The notes beneath the pieces are model-generated. The model made no database searches. It was not told where the DNA came from and saw nothing but the letters and a program-made list of their open reading frames with translations. A program made the translations under genes and the position numbers. Of a DNA stretch of 64,000 nt, positions 2,991 through 62,653 are shown one piece after another. Position 1 is the stretch's first letter. Every line of letters starts with the position of its first letter. This DNA comes from an uncultured Candidatus Peribacteria bacterium (lineage in GTDB: Bacteria; Patescibacteriota; Gracilibacteria; Peribacterales; Peribacteraceae), in assembly GCA_964423795.1 (NCBI GenBank), contig CAYRGC010000005.1, positions 316 to 64,315 on the forward strand, given 5' to 3'.

Positions 2991-3989
2991 ATGGAGGATG
3001 GTGGAGTCGATTTTGTCGCGGGAAAGGAGAGTATTGATAGACTTCCTCCCATGTCCGCCGAATTTGGTGAACACGATGCCGTCGAATTACTGAAATTCAT
3101 ACTCGACGTCGCACATGCGGCAGCGGACAAGGCCATCGAGAAGGCGAGGGAAGGATTTCACGTCGGAATCAATTTCCTGCTGCGAAAACAGTTTCATCCT
3201 CCTCCGCCCGTCGTGCTGCAAACGGCGCTGGATGAAACGCCCATGCATGCGGAAGCTCGGGAGCTTTTGCGCCGGAACGTCATCGCCGAAGACATGGCGA
3301 TCTTCAGTAAGCGCATCTCGGACGTCGTGCTGCTGGCCATCATCGGCATGTTCGTGACGCATCCCAAGGCGAGCACCGTGGGAACCGCTGCTGCCGCGCG
3401 CTTCGTGACGGAGAAGATCGCGCGCCGCAAGCGAGAAATGGCCGATGAGTTTTTCGAGGAAGACAAGGCACTCCTCGTAAAGAGCGACGACCATGCCGAC
3501 GCCGCCGCGGAAGAGTTTCACCGGCTTAAGGACGATCCCGCGCCGCTCTCACGCGTCGAGAGGATCAGCGTCGTGAAGATCGGGTCACGGAACCACTTGG
3601 AGAGGAAGCTGCGATCGCATCCCGATTTGCAGCAAGCGTTTCTGCGGCACGACGGGAAACTCATCCAAGAAAAAATCGCGGCCGCAGAGGCGAAGAAGAA
3701 CCACGTCGGCATTGAAATCGCCGAGATCGACGACGAGGGAATCATCCCCGACGATCTGCGTCTTCTCGACGATGAACCGCGGATCGAGCGACACGCGACT
3801 CCCCTACCGCGTCAGCGCAACTTCAACTGGCTCAAGACGATGCGGGCGCGCTGGAGCTATGCGCCGACGACTACGCCGACCGCGCCCTTCCCCATTTCAC
3901 GACACGAACAACGCGAAGAACAGAGGATTGCCGCGAGAAAACCCCTGGAGAAGCACGTGCTTTATCACTCGCTGAAGTTCCATTCATGA
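2991..3989 (+). CDS. hypothetical protein
   Basis: 332-aa ORF with balanced, non-shadow composition (..LKFILDVAHAAADKAIEKAREGF..). I recognise no family. An alternative start is the ATG at 3051 (MSAEFGEHD). Confidence 0.5.
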   Translation: MEDGGVDFVAGKESIDRLPPMSAEFGEHDAVELLKFILDVAHAAADKAIEKAREGFHVGINFLLRKQFHPPPPVVLQTALDETPMHAEARELLRRNVIAEDMAIFSKRISDVVLLAIIGMFVTHPKASTVGTAAAARFVTEKIARRKREMADEFFEEDKALLVKSDDHADAAAEEFHRLKDDPAPLSRVERISVVKIGSRNHLERKLRSHPDLQQAFLRHDGKLIQEKIAAAEAKKNHVGIEIAEIDDEGIIPDDLRLLDDEPRIERHATPLPRQRNFNWLKTMRARWSYAPTTTPTAPFPISRHEQREEQRIAARKPLEKHVLYHSLKFHS

Positions 3990-3990
3990 C

Positions 3991-4086
3991 TCAGGCGGAT
4001 ATCTGTTGAGTCACGCATGCCCCTCGCCAGGCTCGGGGTGACAGGGCTTGTCCGAATAGTTACTTCGGTATCTGTTGAGTCACGCA
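3991..4086. repeat. reiterated aguA 3' end plus family-A hairpin
   Basis: An 18-nt direct repeat tatctgttgagtcacgca occurs at 4000-4017 and 4069-4086. The second copy is the real aguA end (..CVTQQIPK*). The first reads VTQQISA* on the minus strand with its own stop at 3991-3993. Between them lies cccctcgccaggctcggggtgac (4020-4042), a family-A motif. Confidence 0.75.
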
Positions 4087-7454: not shown

Positions 7455-9041
7455 TTGACGACGAAGAAGACCACGAAGAATCAGGAGCCTCCCCCCGACG
7501 GGGAACATCGGTTCACCCAGGTCTCCGGCCTGCCGGTCTCGCCGCGCTACATGCGCAGCCGCTGGGCGAATTTCCTGAGCCAGACGAAGAGCGGGATGCT
7601 CCTCATCGAGGGCGTTCCCGTGGACCAGCTGGTGCAGAAGTTCGGCACGCCCTTCTACGTGTACGTGGAAAGCGAAATCCGCCGCCGCTGCCGCCGCTTC
7701 AAGAAGACCTTCGGGAAGGACATCGATCTCCAGTACGCCGTGAAGTGCAACAGCAACCTCGAGGTGCTGAGGATCGTCCGCGAGGAGGGGCTCGGTCTCG
7801 ACTGCAGCTCCGTCGCGGAGCTCATCCTGGGGCTCCTCGCCGACTTCAAGCCGAAGCAGATGAGCCTCACGAGCTTGTACAAAAGCGAGCAAGACCTTCT
7901 CTTCGCAGCCAAAATGGGCATCGACGCCATCACGGCCGACTCCATCGAAGAGATCGAGCACATCGCCGCGACCGCGAAGAAGCTCAAGAAGCACATCGAT
8001 ACCGTCATCCGCGTGAACCCGATGCTCCAGGTGGGCACCTACTCCACCAAGGGCAACAAGTACGGCATCCCCGTGAACCACATCGACCGCGCCGTGGACC
8101 TCGCGCGTAAAAGCCCGTACGTGGACTTCAAGGGCTTCCACTTCATGGGCGGCTACGTCTACAACGCGAAGGTGTTCAAGGTGGCAGCGCGCAACATCGT
8201 GAAGATCATCAAGCGATGCGTCGATCGCGGCGTGCCGATCACGCGCCTCTCCCTCGGCGGCGGCTTCCCGGCCGCCATCGGCGAACAGGAGGCGTTCCCG
8301 ATCGAGGACATGCGCGACTTCCCGCGCTACTTCCAGAAGCTCCTCGAGCGCAGCGGCGTTCCGCCGCTCAAGCTGATCTTCGAGCCGGGAAAGAGCATCG
8401 TCCTCAACGCCGGCATGGGCCTCATGAAGGTCGTCGCCCGCAAGCGCCTCGGCATGAACAGCCGCATGGTCATCGCCGACGGCTCCACGTACAACTTCAT
8501 CCCGGACGCTCTCGTGCAGACGGACGTGCACTACGACATCCTCCCTGCCTCCAAGCTCAACTCCCCGCGCATCCACTCGGTGACGGTGGCCGGCAACACC
8601 TGCGACTGCTGGGACCTCATCGTGAAGAACATCGAGATGCCCAAGCTCCGCGCCGGCGACCTGCTCGTGGCGATGGACGTGGGCGCCTACGCCCAGGTGC
8701 TCGCAAACAACTTCAACACCATCCGCCGCGCGCCGATCGTGCTCCTCCGCGAGGACGGCCGCGCCAAGATCATCCGCCGCCGCGACCGCTTCTCCGAGAT
8801 GTTCGCGCCGGAACTGGACGTGCTCAAGCTCGCCGGCCCCAACGAGCTCGAGGCCTACAACAACCTCTACCGCGTGAACATCGACAAGATCTGGAAGGGC
8901 GGCGGCATCGGCAAGCTCGAGCGCGAGAAGTCTCGCGCGGTGCAGGCGTTCGAGGCCGCCGAGCGCGTGCTGCGCAGCGGCGGCAATAAGAAGCTGAATG
9001 GGAACGGCAACGGGAACGGGAAGAACGGAAAAAAGGCGTGA
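7455..9041 (+). CDS. PLP-dependent decarboxylase, fold type III (Orn/DAP/Arg decarboxylase family); probably arginine decarboxylase from context
   Basis: 528 aa with a TTG start. Motifs: FGTPFYVYVESEI, PLP-lysine context YAVKCNSN, LSLGGGFP, EPGKSIVLNAG, GNTCDCWD, VGAYA. It has an unusual C-terminal extension ending NGNGNGNGKNGKKA. The start is uncertain; the first in-frame Met (..SPRYMRSRW..) lies about 30 codons in. Confidence 0.8.
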   Translation: MTTKKTTKNQEPPPDGEHRFTQVSGLPVSPRYMRSRWANFLSQTKSGMLLIEGVPVDQLVQKFGTPFYVYVESEIRRRCRRFKKTFGKDIDLQYAVKCNSNLEVLRIVREEGLGLDCSSVAELILGLLADFKPKQMSLTSLYKSEQDLLFAAKMGIDAITADSIEEIEHIAATAKKLKKHIDTVIRVNPMLQVGTYSTKGNKYGIPVNHIDRAVDLARKSPYVDFKGFHFMGGYVYNAKVFKVAARNIVKIIKRCVDRGVPITRLSLGGGFPAAIGEQEAFPIEDMRDFPRYFQKLLERSGVPPLKLIFEPGKSIVLNAGMGLMKVVARKRLGMNSRMVIADGSTYNFIPDALVQTDVHYDILPASKLNSPRIHSVTVAGNTCDCWDLIVKNIEMPKLRAGDLLVAMDVGAYAQVLANNFNTIRRAPIVLLREDGRAKIIRRRDRFSEMFAPELDVLKLAGPNELEAYNNLYRVNIDKIWKGGGIGKLEREKSRAVQAFEAAERVLRSGGNKKLNGNGNGNGKNGKKA

Positions 9042-17330: not shown

Positions 17331-17461
17331 GTCTCCCTCGTACGTTCGCGCGAGCTACTCAGGAGGACACTGCGTTGGTTCGTCCCTCGGGCTACACTCG
17401 AGATGACAAGCTCACTATGATAAAGCCTTCATTGTCATCCTTCGACTCCGCTCAGGATGAC
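17331..17461. repeat. three tandem family-A-like hairpins downstream of cysS
   Basis: gtcatccttcgactccgctcaggatgac (17434-17461, 8-bp stem, abutting the cysS stop), gtccctcgggctacactcgagatgac (17382-17407), and gtctccctcgtacgttcgcgcgagctactcaggaggac (17331-17368). Confidence 0.65.
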
Positions 17462-17463
17462 AC

Positions 17464-18951
17464 CTATTTCCTCCGCACCTGTTGTCCCTGCGCGGTGTCT
17501 TTCACGTCATACCCGAGCGCGGCGATCGCGTCGCGCAGGCGGTCGGACGCTGCGAAGTCCTTCGCCGCGCGCGCGGCCGCACGTTCGTCGACGAGCGCTT
17601 GCACGTTCGCGGGAACGGCCTCGTTTTCCGGCTCAAAGCAGCCAAAAACGTGACGTATCTTCTCGGTGAATGCCTGGAGCGCGGCCTTCGCTTCGGCATC
17701 GGGAGACGCCGCGCCGTTCGCCTTGTGCATGCATTCGAACACCGCGGCGAGCGCGCCGGGCGTGTTGAGGTCGCCGTCCATCGCGGCATCGAACTCGGCG
17801 GAGAACGCGGCGACGTCCGCGGCGGTGACCGTGCCCTTGTTCTTCTGCGTCGACTCCCCCGCCCCACCGCGCGCGATCCACTCGGTGATCGAGCGGCGGG
17901 ACTGCCTGGCATCGTCCATCCCCTTCCACGTGAACTTCAAGTTGGTGCGGTAGTGCACCGAGAGGAAGTAGTACCGCAGATCGAGCGGGGAATAGCCACG
18001 ATCTTTGACGTCGGGAATTGTTAACACGTTGCCAAGGCTCTTACTCATCTTCTCCCCCGCGAGGTCGATGCGCCTTTTGTGTAACCAAAGCCGAGAAAAC
18101 GGCTTTTTTTTACCCTGAGCGGCGTCGAAGGGCATCGCCGATTCGCTCTGGGCGATCTCGCACTCGTGGTGCGGGAAGATGTTGTCCTCGCCGCCGGTGT
18201 GCAGATCGAGCGTGTCGCCGAGGATCTTGCGCGCCATCGCGGAGCATTCGATGTGCCAGCCCGGGAAACCGGGGCCCCACGGAGACTCCCATCGGAGCAC
18301 ATGATGCGCGTTCTCGCCCACGGCCTTCTTCCAGAGGGCGAAGTCGGCGGGATGCTTCTTCCGCTCGTTCACGTGCACGCGCGCGCCGGCGTTGAGCTTC
18401 TCGAGCGTGTTGCCTGAGAGGCGGCCGTAGTCGGGGAACGACTCGACCGCGAAGTACACGCCGTCCTCCGTCTCGTACGCGTTCCCCTTCTTCACGAGCG
18501 TCTCGATGATCGCGATCATCTCGGGGATCGTTTCCGTGGCTTTGGGACGCGCGAAAGGCTCCAGGATATTCAGCGCCTTCTCGTCCTCCAAAAACTGCGA
18601 CGTATACATCTCCGCGACGCCGAGAACGTCCTGCATCGTGACCTCCGCGCCATCGCCGCGCTTCTGCTTCGCGATGATCTTGGCCTGCTTCTCCACCTTG
18701 TCCTCGCCCGAGTCGGCGTCGGCGACGAGATGCCCGACGTCGGTGATGTTCTTGACGTGCCGGACACGCCACCCGTGGCCCGCCTCCATCCAGCGACGGA
18801 GGAGATCGGCCATGAGGAACGACGAGTAGTTGCCGATGTGCGGACGCCCGTAGACGGTGGGGCCGCAGGTATACATCTTCACGTCCTTCGGATCCTGCGG
18901 AACGAATTCCTCCTCGGACTTGCTGAAGGTGTTGTAGAGGTGGAAGGGCAC
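17464..18951 (-). CDS. cysS: cysteine--tRNA ligase
   Basis: 495 aa. Class I motifs HIGN ([11 protein letters not shown]) and KMSKS ([10 protein letters not shown]), plus the zinc-site context YTCGPTVY. Confidence 0.95.
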
Positions 18952-24069: not shown

Positions 24070-24098
24070 TGGGAGGATGATAGAGGTGTTGCGAGAAG

Positions 24099-24620
24099 GT
24101 TACGAGCGACGAGCGACGGGAGGTTCCGCCAAAGACAAGAACTGAATTTTTGGCATGCGATTAAGTAAAACTCTAATGTCACGGATGCATATTCACTGGA
24201 GCCGTTTTCCGAATCTGCATGTACTACTACGGTAATCACATGACCACTACTCACCAATTCGAAGATCTCGATGTCTGGAAAGAGGCGCGCATCCTCGTAC
24301 GGGCAATTCGCGCGATATGTAAACAGCCAAAAGTTGCGAAAGATTATGCTTTCGTTGATCAAATCACTCGTGCGGCGCGCTCGATTTCTTCCAATATCGC
24401 AGAAGGATCCGAATCATCGAGCAATGAACAATTCAGTCTCTTCCTCAATTATTCGAAACGATCCTGCGGAGAGGTGCGCTCGCATTTGTATGACGCCTTA
24501 GATGAGCAGTATCTGTCCCAGGAACAGTTTGAAAACATGAAAAACCAAACTATCGTGATTGGACGCAGGCTCGGCTCTTTCATCAAATATCTACACTCGC
24601 ATTCCCGTCGCCCGTCGCTC
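24099..24620. mobile_element. IVS-like insertion: family-B inverted heptamer arms enclosing a four-helix-bundle gene
   Basis: The left arm is gttacgagcgacgagcgacggga (24099-24122). The right arm is tcccgtcgcccgtcgctc (24603-24620), whose reverse complement gagcgacgggcgacggga matches the left arm at 17 of 18 positions. The interior is markedly AT-richer than its surroundings. Confidence 0.5.
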
Positions 24621-24644
24621 AAAACCCATCACCATCTTTCCTAA
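24240..24644 (+). CDS. four-helix-bundle protein (23S rRNA intervening-sequence protein / Avd-like family)
   Basis: MTTTHQFEDLDVWKEARILVRAIRAI..QITRAARSISSNIAEGS..FLNYSKRSCGEVRSHLY is the characteristic pattern of this family. The track start at 24219 adds 7 aa. The last ~14 codons are encoded by the right repeat arm. Confidence 0.8.
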   Translation: MTTTHQFEDLDVWKEARILVRAIRAICKQPKVAKDYAFVDQITRAARSISSNIAEGSESSSNEQFSLFLNYSKRSCGEVRSHLYDALDEQYLSQEQFENMKNQTIVIGRRLGSFIKYLHSHSRRPSLKTHHHLS

Positions 24645-29391: not shown

Positions 29392-29468
29392 GGATCCGTA
29401 GCTCAGCTGGTTAGAGCGCCACACTGTCACTGTGGAGGTCGCGGGTTCGAGTCCCGTCGGGTCCGCCA
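29392..29468 (+). tRNA. tRNA-Asp (anticodon GTC), CCA encoded
   Basis: Manual cloverleaf: GGATCCG ta GCTC agctggtta GAGC g CCACA ctGTCac TGTGG aggtc GCGGG ttcgagt CCCGT CGGGTCC g cca. Confidence 0.95.
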
Positions 29469-29840
29469 TTTTCGTGTTGTAGGAATAATGCTTTCGCGAA
29501 GAAGCAAAGAGAAGCCGATGACGAGAAGCCCGTGGTGAGCAAGTCCGCCGAAGCGGACGAGCCGAACCAAGTCCCGTCGGGTCCGCCATCCTTCGTCTCC
29601 GCTCAGGATGACATCCTGGAGACAAGAGCAAAGAGACGAGAATCCTGTGGTGAGCGAGTGAGCGAAGCGAACGAGACGAAGGGAGTCCCGCTTGCCCGGC
29701 GAAGTCAGCCGACGCCGACGAAGCGGGGTCGGGTCCGCCAGCATAAATACGCGACATCAACCCTCTCCACAGTCTTCAACTTCCCCCGAGACTCCTCGTA
29801 GCGCCGCAGCGCGTAGTGGGGTCGGGTCCGCGATTTTTTC
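29469..29840. repeat. array of partial copies of the tRNA-Asp 3' end with family-A motifs
   Basis: agtcccgtcgggtccgcca (29450-29468, real) recurs exactly at 29570-29588. The shorter gtcgggtccgcca occurs at 29728-29740 and gtcgggtccgcg at 29821-29832. The family-A motif CCATCCTTCGTCTCCGCTCAGGATGAC lies at 29586-29612. The loop-expanded relative gtggtgagcgagtgagcgaagcgaacgagacgaaggg lies at 29647-29683. Confidence 0.8.
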
Positions 29841-46496: not shown

Positions 46497-46618
46497 TGGC
46501 AGGCGCGGCAGGGATCCCTTCGTCTCGTTCGCCTATCGGCTCACTCGCTCAGGGTAAACTTCCCACTGTCAGCAAATCATTGTTCATTAACGATTGTCAT
46601 CCTGAGCCTGACGAAGGA
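46497..46618. repeat. duplicate of the tRNA-Trp 3' end plus two family-A motifs
   Basis: tggcaggcgcggcagggatc at 46497-46516 is identical to 46619-46638, the 3' 20 nt of the tRNA on the minus strand. Between them lie cccttcgtctcgttcgcctatcggctcactcgctcagggt (46516-46555) and gtcatcctgagcctgacgaaggatg (46596-46620). Confidence 0.8.
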
Positions 46619-46694
46619 TGGCAGGCGCGGCAGGGATCGAACCCGCGACCCTCGGTTTTGGAGACCGATGCTCTACCAGCTGAGCTACGCGCCT
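46619..46694 (-). tRNA. tRNA-Trp (anticodon CCA), CCA encoded
   Basis: Minus strand: AGGCGCG ta GCTC agctggta GAGC a TCGGT ctCCAaa ACCGA gggtc GCGGG ttcgatc CCTGC CGCGCCT g cca. Confidence 0.95.
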
Positions 46695-59016: not shown

Positions 59017-59841
59017 ATGAAGCTTGCACAAGCCATTCTCCCCGTCGCGGGCCTCGGCACGCGCTTCCTTCCGTGGACCAAGGCGGTACCGAAGGAGCTG
59101 CTGCCCATCGGGAATCAGCCGATCATCGCGCTGCTTGTGGACGAGTGCTTGAGCGTCGGCATTACCGACGTCTGTTTCGTCATCAACCGCGGCAAGGAGG
59201 CGATCCCCCAATACTTCTACGAGAACCCCGCGCTGAGCGCGGAGCTGGAGCGGAAGGGCAAGACGCACCTGCTCGAGGATCTCACGCGCTACGACTCGGT
59301 GAACTTCCACGTGACCTACCAGGAGCAGATGCTCGGCGACGGCCACGCGCTCCTGCAGGCGCGTCACTGGGTGAAGACGCCGGAGGTGGCCGTGCTCTTC
59401 GGCGACGACCTGATCGTAGGGAAGCGCAACGGTCTCCAGCAGCTGACGGCGGCGATGGACGCCACCAAGGGCGACCGCGACGCCGTGATGCTCTGCCTGC
59501 AGAAGATCGACCCCAAGCACACGGAGAAGTACGGCATCGTGGCGGTGGATAACTCTGCCGCGAAGGGCAACGTGCGCCGCGTGACGGGCCTGGTGGAAAA
59601 GCCGAAGCCCAAGGATGCGCCAAGCGACCTCGGGATCGTGGGGAAGTACGTCGTCCCCAAGATGATCTTCGACAAGCTCCATTTGATCGAGGAGGGCTCG
59701 CACGGCGGCGAGATCCGCCTGATCGACGCGCTCATCGCGAACAGGGACGCCGTCGACATCTTCGGCTGCGTCTTCGATGGCAAACGGTACGACACGGGCA
59801 CCCCCGAAGGCTACAAAGAAGCCGTCCTCGACCTTGGATAA
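59017..59841 (+). CDS. galU: UTP--glucose-1-phosphate uridylyltransferase
   Basis: ILPVAGLGTRFLPWTKAVPKELLPI.., GDGHALL, VEKPKP. The ATG at 59017 is preferred over the track start at 58444. Confidence 0.93.
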   Translation: MKLAQAILPVAGLGTRFLPWTKAVPKELLPIGNQPIIALLVDECLSVGITDVCFVINRGKEAIPQYFYENPALSAELERKGKTHLLEDLTRYDSVNFHVTYQEQMLGDGHALLQARHWVKTPEVAVLFGDDLIVGKRNGLQQLTAAMDATKGDRDAVMLCLQKIDPKHTEKYGIVAVDNSAAKGNVRRVTGLVEKPKPKDAPSDLGIVGKYVVPKMIFDKLHLIEEGSHGGEIRLIDALIANRDAVDIFGCVFDGKRYDTGTPEGYKEAVLDLG

Positions 59842-60082
59842 TCACTGAGTGTCACCCTGAGCGGAGTCGAGGGACGACACGGGCACGCCCGAGGGATAGA
59901 AGGAGGCGGTACTCGACCTTGGCTAAGTGTCACCCTGAGCGGAGTCGAAGGGCGACACCGGCACCCCTGAGGGGTACAAGGAGGCGGTACTCGACCTTGG
60001 CTAAGTGTCACCCTGAGCGGAGTCGAAGGGCGACACCGGCACCCCTGAGGGGTACAAGGAGGCGGTCCTCGACTTGGGCTGA
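59842..60082. repeat. three tandem units (85, 78, 78 nt), each a family-A hairpin plus a copy of the last 16 galU codons and a stop
   Basis: The units span 59842-59926, 59927-60004 and 60005-60082. Each contains gtgtcaccctgagcggagtcga(a/g)gg.gac followed by gac ac. ggc ac. cc. gag gg. ta. aag gag gcg gt. ctc gac .t. ggc t.a. Confidence 0.9.
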
Positions 60083-60105
60083 CGATTCGCCTACGCTCCC
60101 CGGCC

Positions 60106-60462
60106 ATGGCCGCGGAAGACCACATCGGCATCGTCGAGTTCGACTTGTTCCAGCGAGGCACGCGGCCGCGGGAACTCACGTATCTCGAGGCCGAGGCGCT
60201 CGAGGAAGAGATCGAAAACAGAAGGAGGGAGATCTATTCGCTCTTGGGCCGACTGATCTTCTGCCTGAGCGGCGCCGTGACGACGCGCGTCTCGAGCGAG
60301 GTGAATCCGCGCTTCCCTTACGTCCTCAGCGAGCGGATCAGGATCGCGATGGTCGGGGAAGGAAAAAAGGTGGAAGACGCGCATGAGGCCGTCGGCTCCT
60401 TCGTACAGGGGATCGTGCTTGAGATGCCGGAATGGGGGAAACAAGGCTCGTCGAGATTCTGA
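60106..60462 (+). CDS. hypothetical protein
   Basis: 118-aa ORF with protein-like composition (..ELTYLEAEALEEEIENRRREIYSLLGRL..). I recognise no family. Confidence 0.45.
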   Translation: MAAEDHIGIVEFDLFQRGTRPRELTYLEAEALEEEIENRRREIYSLLGRLIFCLSGAVTTRVSSEVNPRFPYVLSERIRIAMVGEGKKVEDAHEAVGSFVQGIVLEMPEWGKQGSSRF

Positions 60463-60465
60463 CGA

Positions 60466-60622
60466 TCACTTCGTCGTCAGTTCCCGTCTGAAGAGCTCCT
60501 CCTCGTCTGCGCTCGGGATGACAACGGTTATTTCGTCGTCAGCTCCCTCCTGAGTAATTCAATCTCATGGCGAAGATCGGCAGCCTTTTCGCCCTTCGAC
60601 AGGCTCAGGGTGACAGAAGGAG
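60466..60622. repeat. two reiterated copies of the uvrB 3' end interleaved with family-A hairpins
   Basis: On the minus strand, copy 2 (60528-60590) reads [20 protein letters not shown]. Copy 3 (60466-60510) reads ADEEELFRRELTTK*. The family-A motifs are cccttcgacaggctcagggtgac (60592-60614) and cctcgtctgcgctcgggatgac (60501-60522). Confidence 0.85.
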
Positions 60623-62653
60623 CTATTTCGTCGTGAGCTCCCTCCTCAAGAGCTCAATTTCGTCTCGCAGGTCAGCAGCCTTCTCAAATTCCAGGTTCTG
60701 CGCGGCGATCTCCATCTGCTTCTCGAGCTCTTCCATGAGGCGCTTACGCTCGTCGAGCGGGATCTTCGTGTGATCGCGCTTCGGGCGGCGGAGTTCCATC
60801 TTACGGCTCTCCTCGGCGATGTCGCGCACGGCCTTGATGATCGTCTTCGGCGTGATGCCGTGCTTTTTGTTGTACGCCTCCTGGATGCCGCGGCGGCGCT
60901 CCGTCTCCCCGATGGCGGCCTTCATGGCGTCGGTGATGCGGGGCTTCTTCGTGTCCGGGTCCGGCGAGGCGTAGAGCGTGACGTGGCCGTTGACGTTACG
61001 GGCGGCGCGGCCGATCGTCTGGATGAGGGCGTCGCGCGAGCGGAGAAAACCCTGCTTGTCGGCGTCGAGGATCGCGATGAAACTCACCTCGGGGAGATCG
61101 AGACCTTCGCGCAGGAGGTTGATGCCGACGAGGATGTCGATCTCGCCGGTACGGAGCTGCCGGAGGATCTCGATGCGCTCGAGCGTCTCCACGTCGCTGT
61201 GGAGGTAACGGACCTTCTTGCCCTGCTCCGTGAGGTACTTCGTGAGGTCCTCGGCCATCTTCTTCGTGAGCGTCGTGATGAGCACGCGCTCGCCGCGCTT
61301 GATCGTGGCCTCCACCTCGCCCGAGATGTCGTCGATCTGGTTCTTCGAGGGCTTCACGGTCACGACCGGATCGATGAGACCCGTCGGGCGGATGATCTGC
61401 TCCGCGAAAAACGCCTTCTGCGTGTTCTTGAACTCGTACGGGCCAGGCGTGGCCGAGACGTAGACGCGCTGCGGGCAGCGGTCCTCGAACTCGTCGAAAC
61501 GGAGCGGGCGGTTGTCGTGCGCGGAGGGCAGGCGGAAGCCGTAGTCGACGAGGGTGTTCTTGCGGCTGCGGTTGCCCTCGTGCATGCCGCCGATCTGCGG
61601 GATGGAGATGTGCGACTCGTCCACGACGAGCAGGAAGTCGTTCGGGAAGTAGTCGAGGAGCGTCGACGGGGGGCAGCCGGGAGCCTGGTTATTGAGGTAC
61701 CGCACGTAGTTCTCGATGCCGGTGCAATAACCCGTCTCGCGGAGCATCTCGATGTCGTACTCCGTGCGCATGCGGATGCGCTCGGCCTTGGCGTGTTCGC
61801 CGTGCGCTAGGAAGAACTTCTCCTGCTCCACCATCTCGGCCTTGATGCCGTCCACAGCCTGGTCGATCTTCTCCTTGGTGGTGACGTTGTGGGCGGCCGG
61901 GAAGATCATCACCTCCTGGAGCTCGTTCAAAAGTTCTCCGGTGAAGCTGTCGACCTCCTGGATCACGTCGATCTCGTCGAAGGGGACCTCGATGCGGATC
62001 ACCGTGTCGCCGCTCGGCGGGAAGATCTCCACGGTGTCGCCGAGCACGTGGACCATGCCCTGCTTGAAGTCCATGCCGGAGCGGCGGTACTGGATGTCCG
62101 TGAGGCGGCGGAGCAGCTGATCGCGCTTGATGGGCATCCCGCGCTTGAGCGTGATCGCCAGCGCCTCGTAATCCTCGACGTTGCCGAGACCGTAGATGCA
62201 GGAGACGGACGCGACGATGAGCACGTCCCGGCGCGTGAGCAGGTTGAATGTGGCGGCGTGGCGGAACTTCTCGATCTCCTCGTTGATGCTCGCGTCCTTC
62301 TCGATGTAGGTATCGGTCGTGGGGAGGTACGCCTCCGGCTGGTAGTAATCGTAGTAGGAGACGAAGTACGAAATGGCGTTCTCCGGGAAGAACTGCTGGA
62401 ACTCGTTGCAGAGCTGCGCGGCGAGCGTCTTATTGTGCGCGAGCACGAGCGTGGGGCGCTGCACCTGCTGCACGATGTTGGCGATCGTGAACGTCTTGCC
62501 CGTGCCCGTGGCGCCGAGGAGCGTCTGATGCTTCTCGCCGGCGTTCACGCCCTTCACGAGTTGCTCGATGGCCGCGGGCTGGTCGCCCATGGGCTGGAAC
62601 GGCGACACCAGCTTGAAGGGCTGGTTCTGCACGAGTTTGAGGGAGCTCGACAT
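60623..62653 (-). CDS. uvrB: excinuclease ABC subunit B
   Basis: Walker [18 protein letters not shown], helicase motifs, and the C-terminal UVR domain ..[17 protein letters not shown]. The ATG at 62653 (MSSSLKLV) is preferred and is preceded by TATGCT 9 nt upstream. Confidence 0.95.

Follow-up and report, generated by a model that had tools for sequence, protein, structure and literature searches.

Small palindromic repeats include repetitive extragenic palindromic (REP) sequences, the REP doublets termed REPINs, miniature inverted-repeat transposable elements (MITEs) and repeats of the Rickettsia palindromic element (RPE) type, including very small mobile repeats of cyanobacteria, and we know of no family of this kind reported with a re-coded end of a neighbouring gene or with displaced gene or tRNA ends. 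Here we describe such a combination in a 64,000-nt stretch of DNA (contig CAYRGC010000005.1; hereafter the window), assigned by the sequence of its UvrB protein to Candidatus Peribacteria in the candidate phyla radiation (CPR): the end of the gene uvrB recurs twice downstream of its stop codon, each time behind a short hairpin and in re-coded form. We propose that these two downstream copies are probably former uvrB 3′ ends, displaced by the serial insertion of short cassettes. Among described systems, prophage e14 of Escherichia coli lies between icd and a displaced icdC fragment, and icd and icdC differ by silent changes (PMC13626634). In cis-mobilizable elements (CIMEs), integration genes have been lost, attL and attR are kept, and elements accrete in tandem (PMC5704250).

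The arrays in the window share features with each of these systems. As with e14 and phage 21 in icd, insertion appears to have struck among the final codons of a conserved gene, the end supplied by the element to have become the live one and the native end to have been displaced as a pseudo-fragment; as with icd and icdC, the two ends differ mainly by silent changes. Unlike e14, which spans about 15 kb and carries its own integrase and cargo, the inserts described here measure 68-95 bp and hold no open reading frame (ORF), with neither an integrase nor any coding capacity; they are also stacked in tandem, and one hairpin family serves five or more targets rather than one integrase serving one attachment site. 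Like tRNA-targeting islands and CIMEs, the inserts at two tRNA genes are flanked by direct repeats running from the T-loop to CCA, and successive integrations would build tandem arrays. Unlike CIMEs, which are decayed kilobase-scale islands with haphazard remains, these arrays are made of a uniform minimal unit (gene end, stop codon, 2-17 nt, and a hairpin fused to the next copy), and unlike tRNA-targeting islands and CIMEs they have no integrase nearby, as far as the 64-kb window extends. The hairpin itself is close to REP, REPIN, MITE and RPE repeats in being a dispersed, imperfect palindrome of about 24-28 nt that lies mostly just after stop codons and is oriented with the upstream gene, in having a stem conserved by compensatory changes, and in being able to sit in frame inside a gene (here cysS), as Rickettsia palindromic elements do. 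On our best reading the arrays, which are real and recurrent as a feature, are miniature cassettes, bounded by hairpins, by which gene 3′ ends are replaced; the known principle would then be integration that supplies a surrogate target end, and the interest would lie in the tiny size, the generality over genes and tRNAs and the occurrence in CPR bacteria.

The array behind uvrB

uvrB occupies positions 60623..62653 of the minus strand (ATG start, 676 aa) and was called as an ORF whose product has UvrB Pfam domains and is 100% identical to database protein P0001. Its terminal segment of 20 codons and a TAG stop, the live end (c1, 60685..60623), is separated by an 8-nt spacer from hairpin H1 (GTCACCCTGAGCCTGTCGAAGGGC; 60614..60591), the 3′ end of which is fused directly to copy 2 (60590..60528), a complete version of the segment with 20 codons, a TAA stop and one replacement, D to H. 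After a further 5-nt spacer comes hairpin H2 (GTCATCCCGAGCGCAGACGAGG; 60522..60501), whose 3′ arm is truncated and merged with copy 3 (DEEELFRRELTTK and a TGA stop; 60507..60466), a degenerate copy of 13 codons that overlaps the 3′ half of H2. The hairpins flanking the individual copies differ from each other. An earlier note on this DNA had claimed that the uvrB end is reiterated twice downstream, and every element of that description is present on the minus strand; two details need correction, in that the leading A given there to copy 3 is part of H2 and not of the copy, and in that the stop of copy 3 lies 3 nt, not 4 nt, from the stop of a convergent 118-aa ORF.

Of 63 nt, 15 distinguish the live end from copy 2. 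Codon position 3 accounts for 12 of these differences; the remaining three fall at position 1, where two are synonymous for Leu, and position 2 is unchanged. D to H is the sole amino-acid change, and the two sequences have few long exact stretches in common. When 15 substitutions were placed at random, none of 50,000 simulations produced so few amino-acid changes (P < 1e-4), and the chance of at least 12 position-3 differences was 8e-5 in the same simulations, which bears out the silent divergence that the earlier note had read from the codons. When all long ORF ends in the window were scanned at the peptide level, reiteration was found at uvrB and galU only. Given the simulation result and this window-wide scan, the uvrB reiteration is real and not a product of chance.

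uvrB ends in related genomes

Six loci carry an insert after uvrB: the window and the related loci L081, L164, L170, L084 and L085. In L084 and L085 (both 82% identical to the window in UvrB), a hairpin variant and a re-coded 15-residue end begin 16 nt after the stop; in L170 (85%), 13 nt after the stop come a hairpin, a 21-residue copy of the end and a terminator-like hairpin; in L081 (96%), a 316-aa low-GC ORF is followed by a degenerate remnant of the uvrB end at the position of copy 3 in the window; and in L164 (85%), hairpins follow the uvrB stop with no recognisable copy. A single plain uvrB end was found in L082, L083, L165, L168, L169 and L001, and sites that are empty in relatives comprise galU in L081 and uvrB in L082, L083 and L168. 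Exact-protein look-ups with the window's own UvrB, using either start codon, gave no match. A scan of a genome collection with the full UvrB as query returned only one Peribacteria genome, at 76% identity too distant for use, and a metagenome scan with the C-terminal half of UvrB returned mostly generic helicase peptides, L084 and L085 being the useful matches.

These loci bear on whether variants of the uvrB end from several strains or species were strung together through the hairpin repeat during metagenome assembly, as might be suspected for a contig from an uncultured organism in which the hairpin is a dispersed repeat and the copies look like alleles of different lineages. L084 and L085 are separately assembled Joint Genome Institute (JGI) contigs (Ga0066639 and Ga0209212) that share the same architecture with differences at the level of single-nucleotide polymorphisms, L170 shows it as well, and L081 shows it in modified form. 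The earlier note had named an assembly artefact as the outcome that would undo its observation; with the same kind of structure in four separately assembled contigs from three other lineages, the uvrB architecture is not such an artefact. The flanking hairpins of the window array also differ and long exact stretches common to c1 and copy 2 are few, and the junction between hairpin and copy start occurs in no single-copy genome, so reads must span it. We therefore regard misassembly as extremely unlikely.

Several further observations concern the uvrB end and its surroundings in these relatives. L084 and L085 are about 97% identical by eye upstream of about positions 3140-3165, yet five of the last 24 nt of uvrB differ between them; the live end of L085 is similar to the copy downstream of it, a sign that gene conversion may have occurred between live and displaced ends. 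In L081, the 316-aa ORF (8044-8994), low in GC by appearance, lies directly behind a re-coded uvrB end and has the remnant of the old end on its far side; therefore the uvrB end can also take a gene-sized insert. Neither Pfam nor PADLOC assigned a family to this ORF or to the 118-aa ORF between galU and uvrB (window 60106-60462, plus strand; L081 9089-9445), which is present only in the window and L081. galU and uvrB converge directly in L082, L083 and L168, and do so on a bidirectional terminator in L082 and L083; the intergenic spot between the two genes appears to be an insertion hotspot. The tail '...RRELTTK' was considered as a sequence travelling with the hairpin and was set aside as uninformative, since in L165 the tail occurs with no hairpin and in L164 hairpins occur with no copy.

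Composition and origin of live and displaced ends

Four lines of sequence evidence, namely an identity drop, composition, orthology and allele type, agree in making the live end look foreign and the distal copies look native. Across uvrB, the window and its sister genome L081 are 91.4% identical, with 63-nt bins ranging from 83 to 100% except for the last, at 75%, which adjoins a bin at 95%. The first difference between the two falls six nt inside the repeated segment, immediately after ...GAATTTGAGAAGGC, and beyond it nearly every codon is silently changed. The earlier note had raised the possibility that the copies match alleles of different lineages, and the live end does break from the sister genome at about the repeat boundary and is a compositional outlier: its GC content at third codon positions (GC3) is 0.70 against 0.94 for the body of uvrB, below every other 20-codon window of the gene (minimum 0.75). 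GC3 below the level of the host is usual for mobile DNA.

The same depression recurs in the other loci with an insert, where GC3 of live end and body is 0.65 and 0.92 in L081, 0.65 and 0.94 in L164, 0.45 and 0.85 in L170, 0.47 and 0.72 in L084, and 0.41 and 0.72 in L085. In four of the six insert loci the live end lies below all other windows of the gene, and in the other two it is within the lowest 2-3%. GC3 of the uvrB end is unremarkable in all six loci without an insert, so that end GC3 separates the two groups perfectly. Distal copies have host-like values (0.85 for uvrB copy 3, 0.94 for the third galU copy, c3, and 0.67 for the L084 copy), and uvrB copy 2 has a GC3 of 0.55.

Orthology and allele type point the same way. 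Over its last 15 nt and in the downstream flank, galU c3 matches the real end of galU in L081, a gene without such units there, and uvrB copy 3 aligns with the remnant that L081 has at this position. In L084 and L085, the displaced copy shares 90% identity with the real uvrB end of L165 and only 79-86% with the end of its own gene, which fits the suggestion of alleles from different lineages. Agmatine deiminases of the clade, including that of the sister genome, mostly end in IPA before the stop; a single C>T change separates the displaced agmatine-deiminase end in the window from this IPA allele, and the live end carries a different allele, IPK. GC3, identity drop, orthology and allele type are thus all as expected if the live copy came from an element and the distal copy is native.

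The hairpin family

A 12-nt hairpin core has ten matches in the window against 2.0 expected by chance. The predicted fold is a stem of 4-8 bp closed by GA/GA motifs, and in an alignment of 14 instances from the window and its relatives, made with MAFFT after removal of the variable loop, the inner four stem pairs are almost always formed (all four in 11 instances). Compensatory U-A/C-G changes occur at two stem positions, and the observed covariation score was reached in one of 500 shuffles. The repeat is accordingly short, imperfect, present in many copies, mostly extragenic and compensated in its stem, as palindromic repeats are, and where it is fused to a copy, precisely there, the outer 3′ arm is interrupted. 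Beyond the window and its relatives, the hairpin family also occurs at a Thermomicrobia locus.

A full hairpin was present in only two of 2.9 million viral contigs, and the viral contigs contained no sequence resembling a uvrB end, giving no support for a phage attP. Rfam returned no family for the hairpin, its only matches in the window being the two tRNAs; in the literature the hairpin sequence turned up only as primer coincidences, and a search on repeats in Peribacteria and CPR bacteria found nothing relevant, TIGR arrays being unrelated. Hammerhead, K-turn, dif and attC identities were dropped, as their consensus sequences do not appear to fit the hairpin.

The hairpin is also found at cysS (17464..18951, minus strand). 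A member of the family lies in frame inside the gene at 18112-18133 (plus strand) and adds about 'PFDAAQG(KK)' just upstream of the KMSKS motif, in the manner of a Rickettsia palindromic element. Two nt after the cysS stop (17334-17461, minus strand), three motifs of the family stand in tandem, the first a full palindrome of 28 nt, the second diverged and the third of the long-loop form; 'GACACGGTGCC...' behind this trio weakly resembles the end of cysS, with no clear displaced copy.

Other gene and tRNA ends in the window

The earlier note had drawn a parallel between uvrB and galU, which is apt. At galU (live end and units together 59791..60082, plus strand), the stop at 59839-59841 is followed by three head-to-tail units, each exactly 78 nt and each consisting of a hairpin of the family seen in the uvrB array fused to a silently re-coded DTGTPEGYKEAVLDLG and stop (c1 59876-59926, c2 59954-60004, c3 60032-60082). 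The copies diverge mainly silently, as at uvrB; galU c1 contains a nonsense codon, and identity falls along a ladder from 92% (c3-c2) through 90% (c2-c1) to 82% (c1 and the live end, c0).

The uniform length and head-to-tail order of the galU units, and the greater similarity of neighbouring than of distant copies, are what in-place tandem duplication of gene end and hairpin by slippage or unequal crossing-over, followed by drift, would produce. Untranslated copies should, however, change at all codon positions, whereas the differences are almost purely silent, and a duplicated end plus hairpin would leave a terminal hairpin, whereas the arrays end in a copy without one; neutral drift after tandem duplication is contradicted by these two features. 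The compositional outlier status of the live end and its abrupt divergence from the sister genome also fit duplication poorly, and we consider this origin very improbable.

Two tRNA genes and a third protein-coding gene behave in the same way, which goes beyond what the earlier note saw; that note offered no mechanism. At the agmatine-deiminase gene (3991..4086, minus strand), the live end, CVTQQIPK and a stop, is followed by a 17-nt spacer, a hairpin (4042..4019) and the displaced end, CVTQQISA and a stop. At the genes for tRNA-Asp and tRNA-Trp, the last 19-20 nt, from the T-loop to CCA, recur 100-125 nt downstream, with a reverse-oriented hairpin beside the tRNA and, joined to the displaced copy, a hairpin of the long-loop form. 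For tRNA-Asp (19-nt 3′ end; 29450..29740, plus strand), these are a reverse-oriented hairpin at 29589-29612 behind a copy at 29570-29588, and a long-form hairpin at 29644-29683 in front of a split copy at 29684-29740. For tRNA-Trp (46497..46638, minus strand), a hairpin in reverse orientation (46618..46596) comes after the 20-nt 3′ end; beyond a spacer, a long-form hairpin (46555..46517) leads into an exact copy of those 20 nt (46516..46497).

Inserts are therefore flanked by direct repeats of the target 3′ end at uvrB, galU, the agmatine-deiminase gene, tRNA-Asp and tRNA-Trp, and three rules hold at every site. The 3′ arm of the forward hairpin (...CGARGGR) abuts the start of the displaced copy; the repeated segment runs precisely to the stop codon or the tRNA CCA, where conservation between lineages ends; and the final copy of an array has no hairpin behind it.

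The state of the copies also bears on whether they function, either by being translated through frameshifting or read-through to give an extended UvrB, or as spare ends for annealing repair of breaks at the hairpin. Copy 2 of uvrB retains an intact reading frame and its own stop, and silent-only divergence is what selection on coding capacity would yield. Yet the offset between live stop and copy measures 32 nt in the window, against 37 nt for L170 and about 40 nt for L084, with no conserved frame relation, and one frame of the hairpin contains TGA, which makes translation of the displaced copies unlikely. Decay is likewise visible in the nonsense codon of galU c1, the degenerate uvrB copy 3 and the loss of a conserved proline from the agmatine-deiminase copy, and frequent recombination would homogenise the copies, yet differences of 18-25% persist. 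On balance we give a functional role for the copies hardly any credence.

Within the third tRNA-Asp 3′-end copy (29684-29740, plus strand), the interruption is a 36-nt insert (CTTGCCCGGCGAAGTCAGCCGACGCCGACGAAGCGG), an insertion within a displaced copy; by eye, the insert and its flanking CCG resemble another hairpin.

A model of serial cassette insertion

The displacement that we consider probable for uvrB copies 2 and 3 would proceed as follows. On at least two occasions, a short gene-free cassette would have inserted at the start of the last ~20 codons of uvrB, each cassette (~90 bp) comprising an alternative uvrB end, a stop codon, a spacer of 5-8 nt (2-17 nt at other genes) and a REP-like hairpin of ~24 nt. 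The gene end of the cassette would take over as the live end and leave UvrB intact, and the previous end would be pushed downstream, directly behind the hairpin, where it would slowly decay; the latest cassette would be the source of c1. Other lineages of lower GC, or a pool of mobile DNA, would be the source of the cassette ends, which would for this reason differ near-exclusively silently from the ends that they displace. The same process would also act at galU, the agmatine-deiminase gene, tRNA-Asp and tRNA-Trp.

The insertion step itself is one that we infer, and two routes seem most likely. A recombinase encoded elsewhere in the genome may act on the hairpin-bounded unit. Alternatively, donor DNA from relatives may be taken up with its 3′ end shielded by the stable hairpin, be anchored by the conserved coding sequence and be joined illegitimately at the hairpin end. 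We interpret the order of an array as an order of age, in keeping with the strong decay of uvrB copy 3, the nonsense codon of galU c1 and the agmatine-deiminase copy without its conserved proline. Some unequal crossing-over or gene conversion inside the arrays is likely as well, given the galU identity ladder, the hybrid character of galU c3 and the live end of L085, which looks partly converted by its own downstream copy.

An alternative with two steps would have the hairpin transpose into the terminal codons, duplicating or truncating the end, after which homologous exchange with a relative carrying end, stop and hairpin would overwrite the live end, the hairpin serving as right-hand homology. 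Such a history would accommodate the lone hairpin inserted in frame inside cysS, the tRNA inserts with inverted hairpins at both ends and exact flanking repeats of 19-20 nt (as for a MITE with its target duplication), the 18 nt of exact identity at the agmatine-deiminase gene and the donor-like state of L164, in which a hairpin stands right behind the stop with no displaced copy; it also accounts for foreign, silent-only divergence. It requires, however, either a viable intermediate with truncated UvrB, GalU or tRNA, or staggered cuts 18-63 nt apart, one of them always at a stop codon or CCA, and in two lineages the foreign segment has a sharp left boundary, at most a few nt from the repeat start, whereas ordinary homologous exchange should scatter it. 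We judge this sequence of events, a serious rival, rather unlikely.

Several points weigh against serial cassette insertion. The ORFs of the 64-kb window, of which 20 were searched against Pfam and the rest were read by eye as translations, include none for a recombinase, a reverse transcriptase, or a Y1 (RAYT) or other transposase; the 316-aa ORF of L081 encodes no recombinase either. Neither a free nor a circular form of the cassette was seen, nor was any donor allele found that exceeds 90% identity to one of the copies. A single hairpin family at five targets within 64 kb is unlike an ordinary site-specific integrase, and classical integrase chemistry needs a larger duplex circle than one of 80-95 bp. 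Reading of the sites found no motif common to the gene sequences just 5′ of the repeat starts. The agmatine-deiminase repeat is identical over 18 nt, with no re-coding. Low GC3 beside a hairpin could in principle reflect local selection and not foreign origin, and the relatives amount to only about seven loci, among which the L084/L085 and window/L081 pairs are not independent. In considering how sites are chosen, a fixed target motif 5′ of the repeat was dropped for want of one common to the sites, and simple microhomology at the joints was dropped as inconsistent between sites.

Beyond the uvrB locus, we tentatively suggest that Peribacteria may carry an undescribed class of miniature, cargo-less mobile cassettes that move between lineages, replace gene 3′ ends and leave fossil arrays, mobilised by a recombinase or through transformation with hairpin-protected DNA ends. 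As proposed, each member joins a REP-like hairpin to a target end, which is either a silently re-coded version of the final 6-20 codons of a conserved gene or, for a tRNA, its final 19-20 nt.

Implications

If serial cassette insertion is correct, the 3′ ends of essential genes and tRNAs in these tiny genomes would be serially overwritten by foreign alleles carried with a 24-nt hairpin, and gene 3′ ends would be hotspots of horizontal allele replacement. A cassette would then be about the smallest self-rescuing insertion that can be designed, on a principle shared with engineered drives that carry a re-coded rescue copy. The arrays would hold past alleles in order and could be used to follow gene flow among uncultured CPR bacteria, and they would point to an uncharacterised recombination activity on small hairpins.

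For annotation and for estimates of diversity, the arrays yield spurious ORFs and local spikes of silent divergence at gene ends. Spurious repetitive ORFs made of hairpins and copies occur in the window at 59811-60179 (minus strand) and at 59919-60386, 60383-60553 and 60567-60773 (plus strand); they include, for example, '...CHPERSRRATPAPLRGTRRR...' twice, and gene callers could label them hypothetical proteins.

Additional observations

Two described kinds of array or variable end were considered and rejected. A diversity-generating retroelement does not fit, as the substitutions are of all types and silent rather than adenine-specific and no reverse transcriptase was found. A CRISPR-like array does not fit either, as one and the same gene end fills every 'spacer', no cas gene was found and the two tRNAs were the sole Rfam matches.

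The only protein in the window related to diversity-generating retroelements is a lone member of the 23S_rRNA_IVP/bAvd family, 36 kb away from the uvrB array. Its gene (24219-24644; E = 1e-29) has a GC3 of only 0.52 and is bracketed by a 24-nt inverted repeat (24098-24121 and 24603-24626, 88% complementary), and gene and repeat together probably form a small mobile cassette of their own. In L081, L082 and L170, members of this gene family lie at other places, and an uncalled one follows uvrB in L169.

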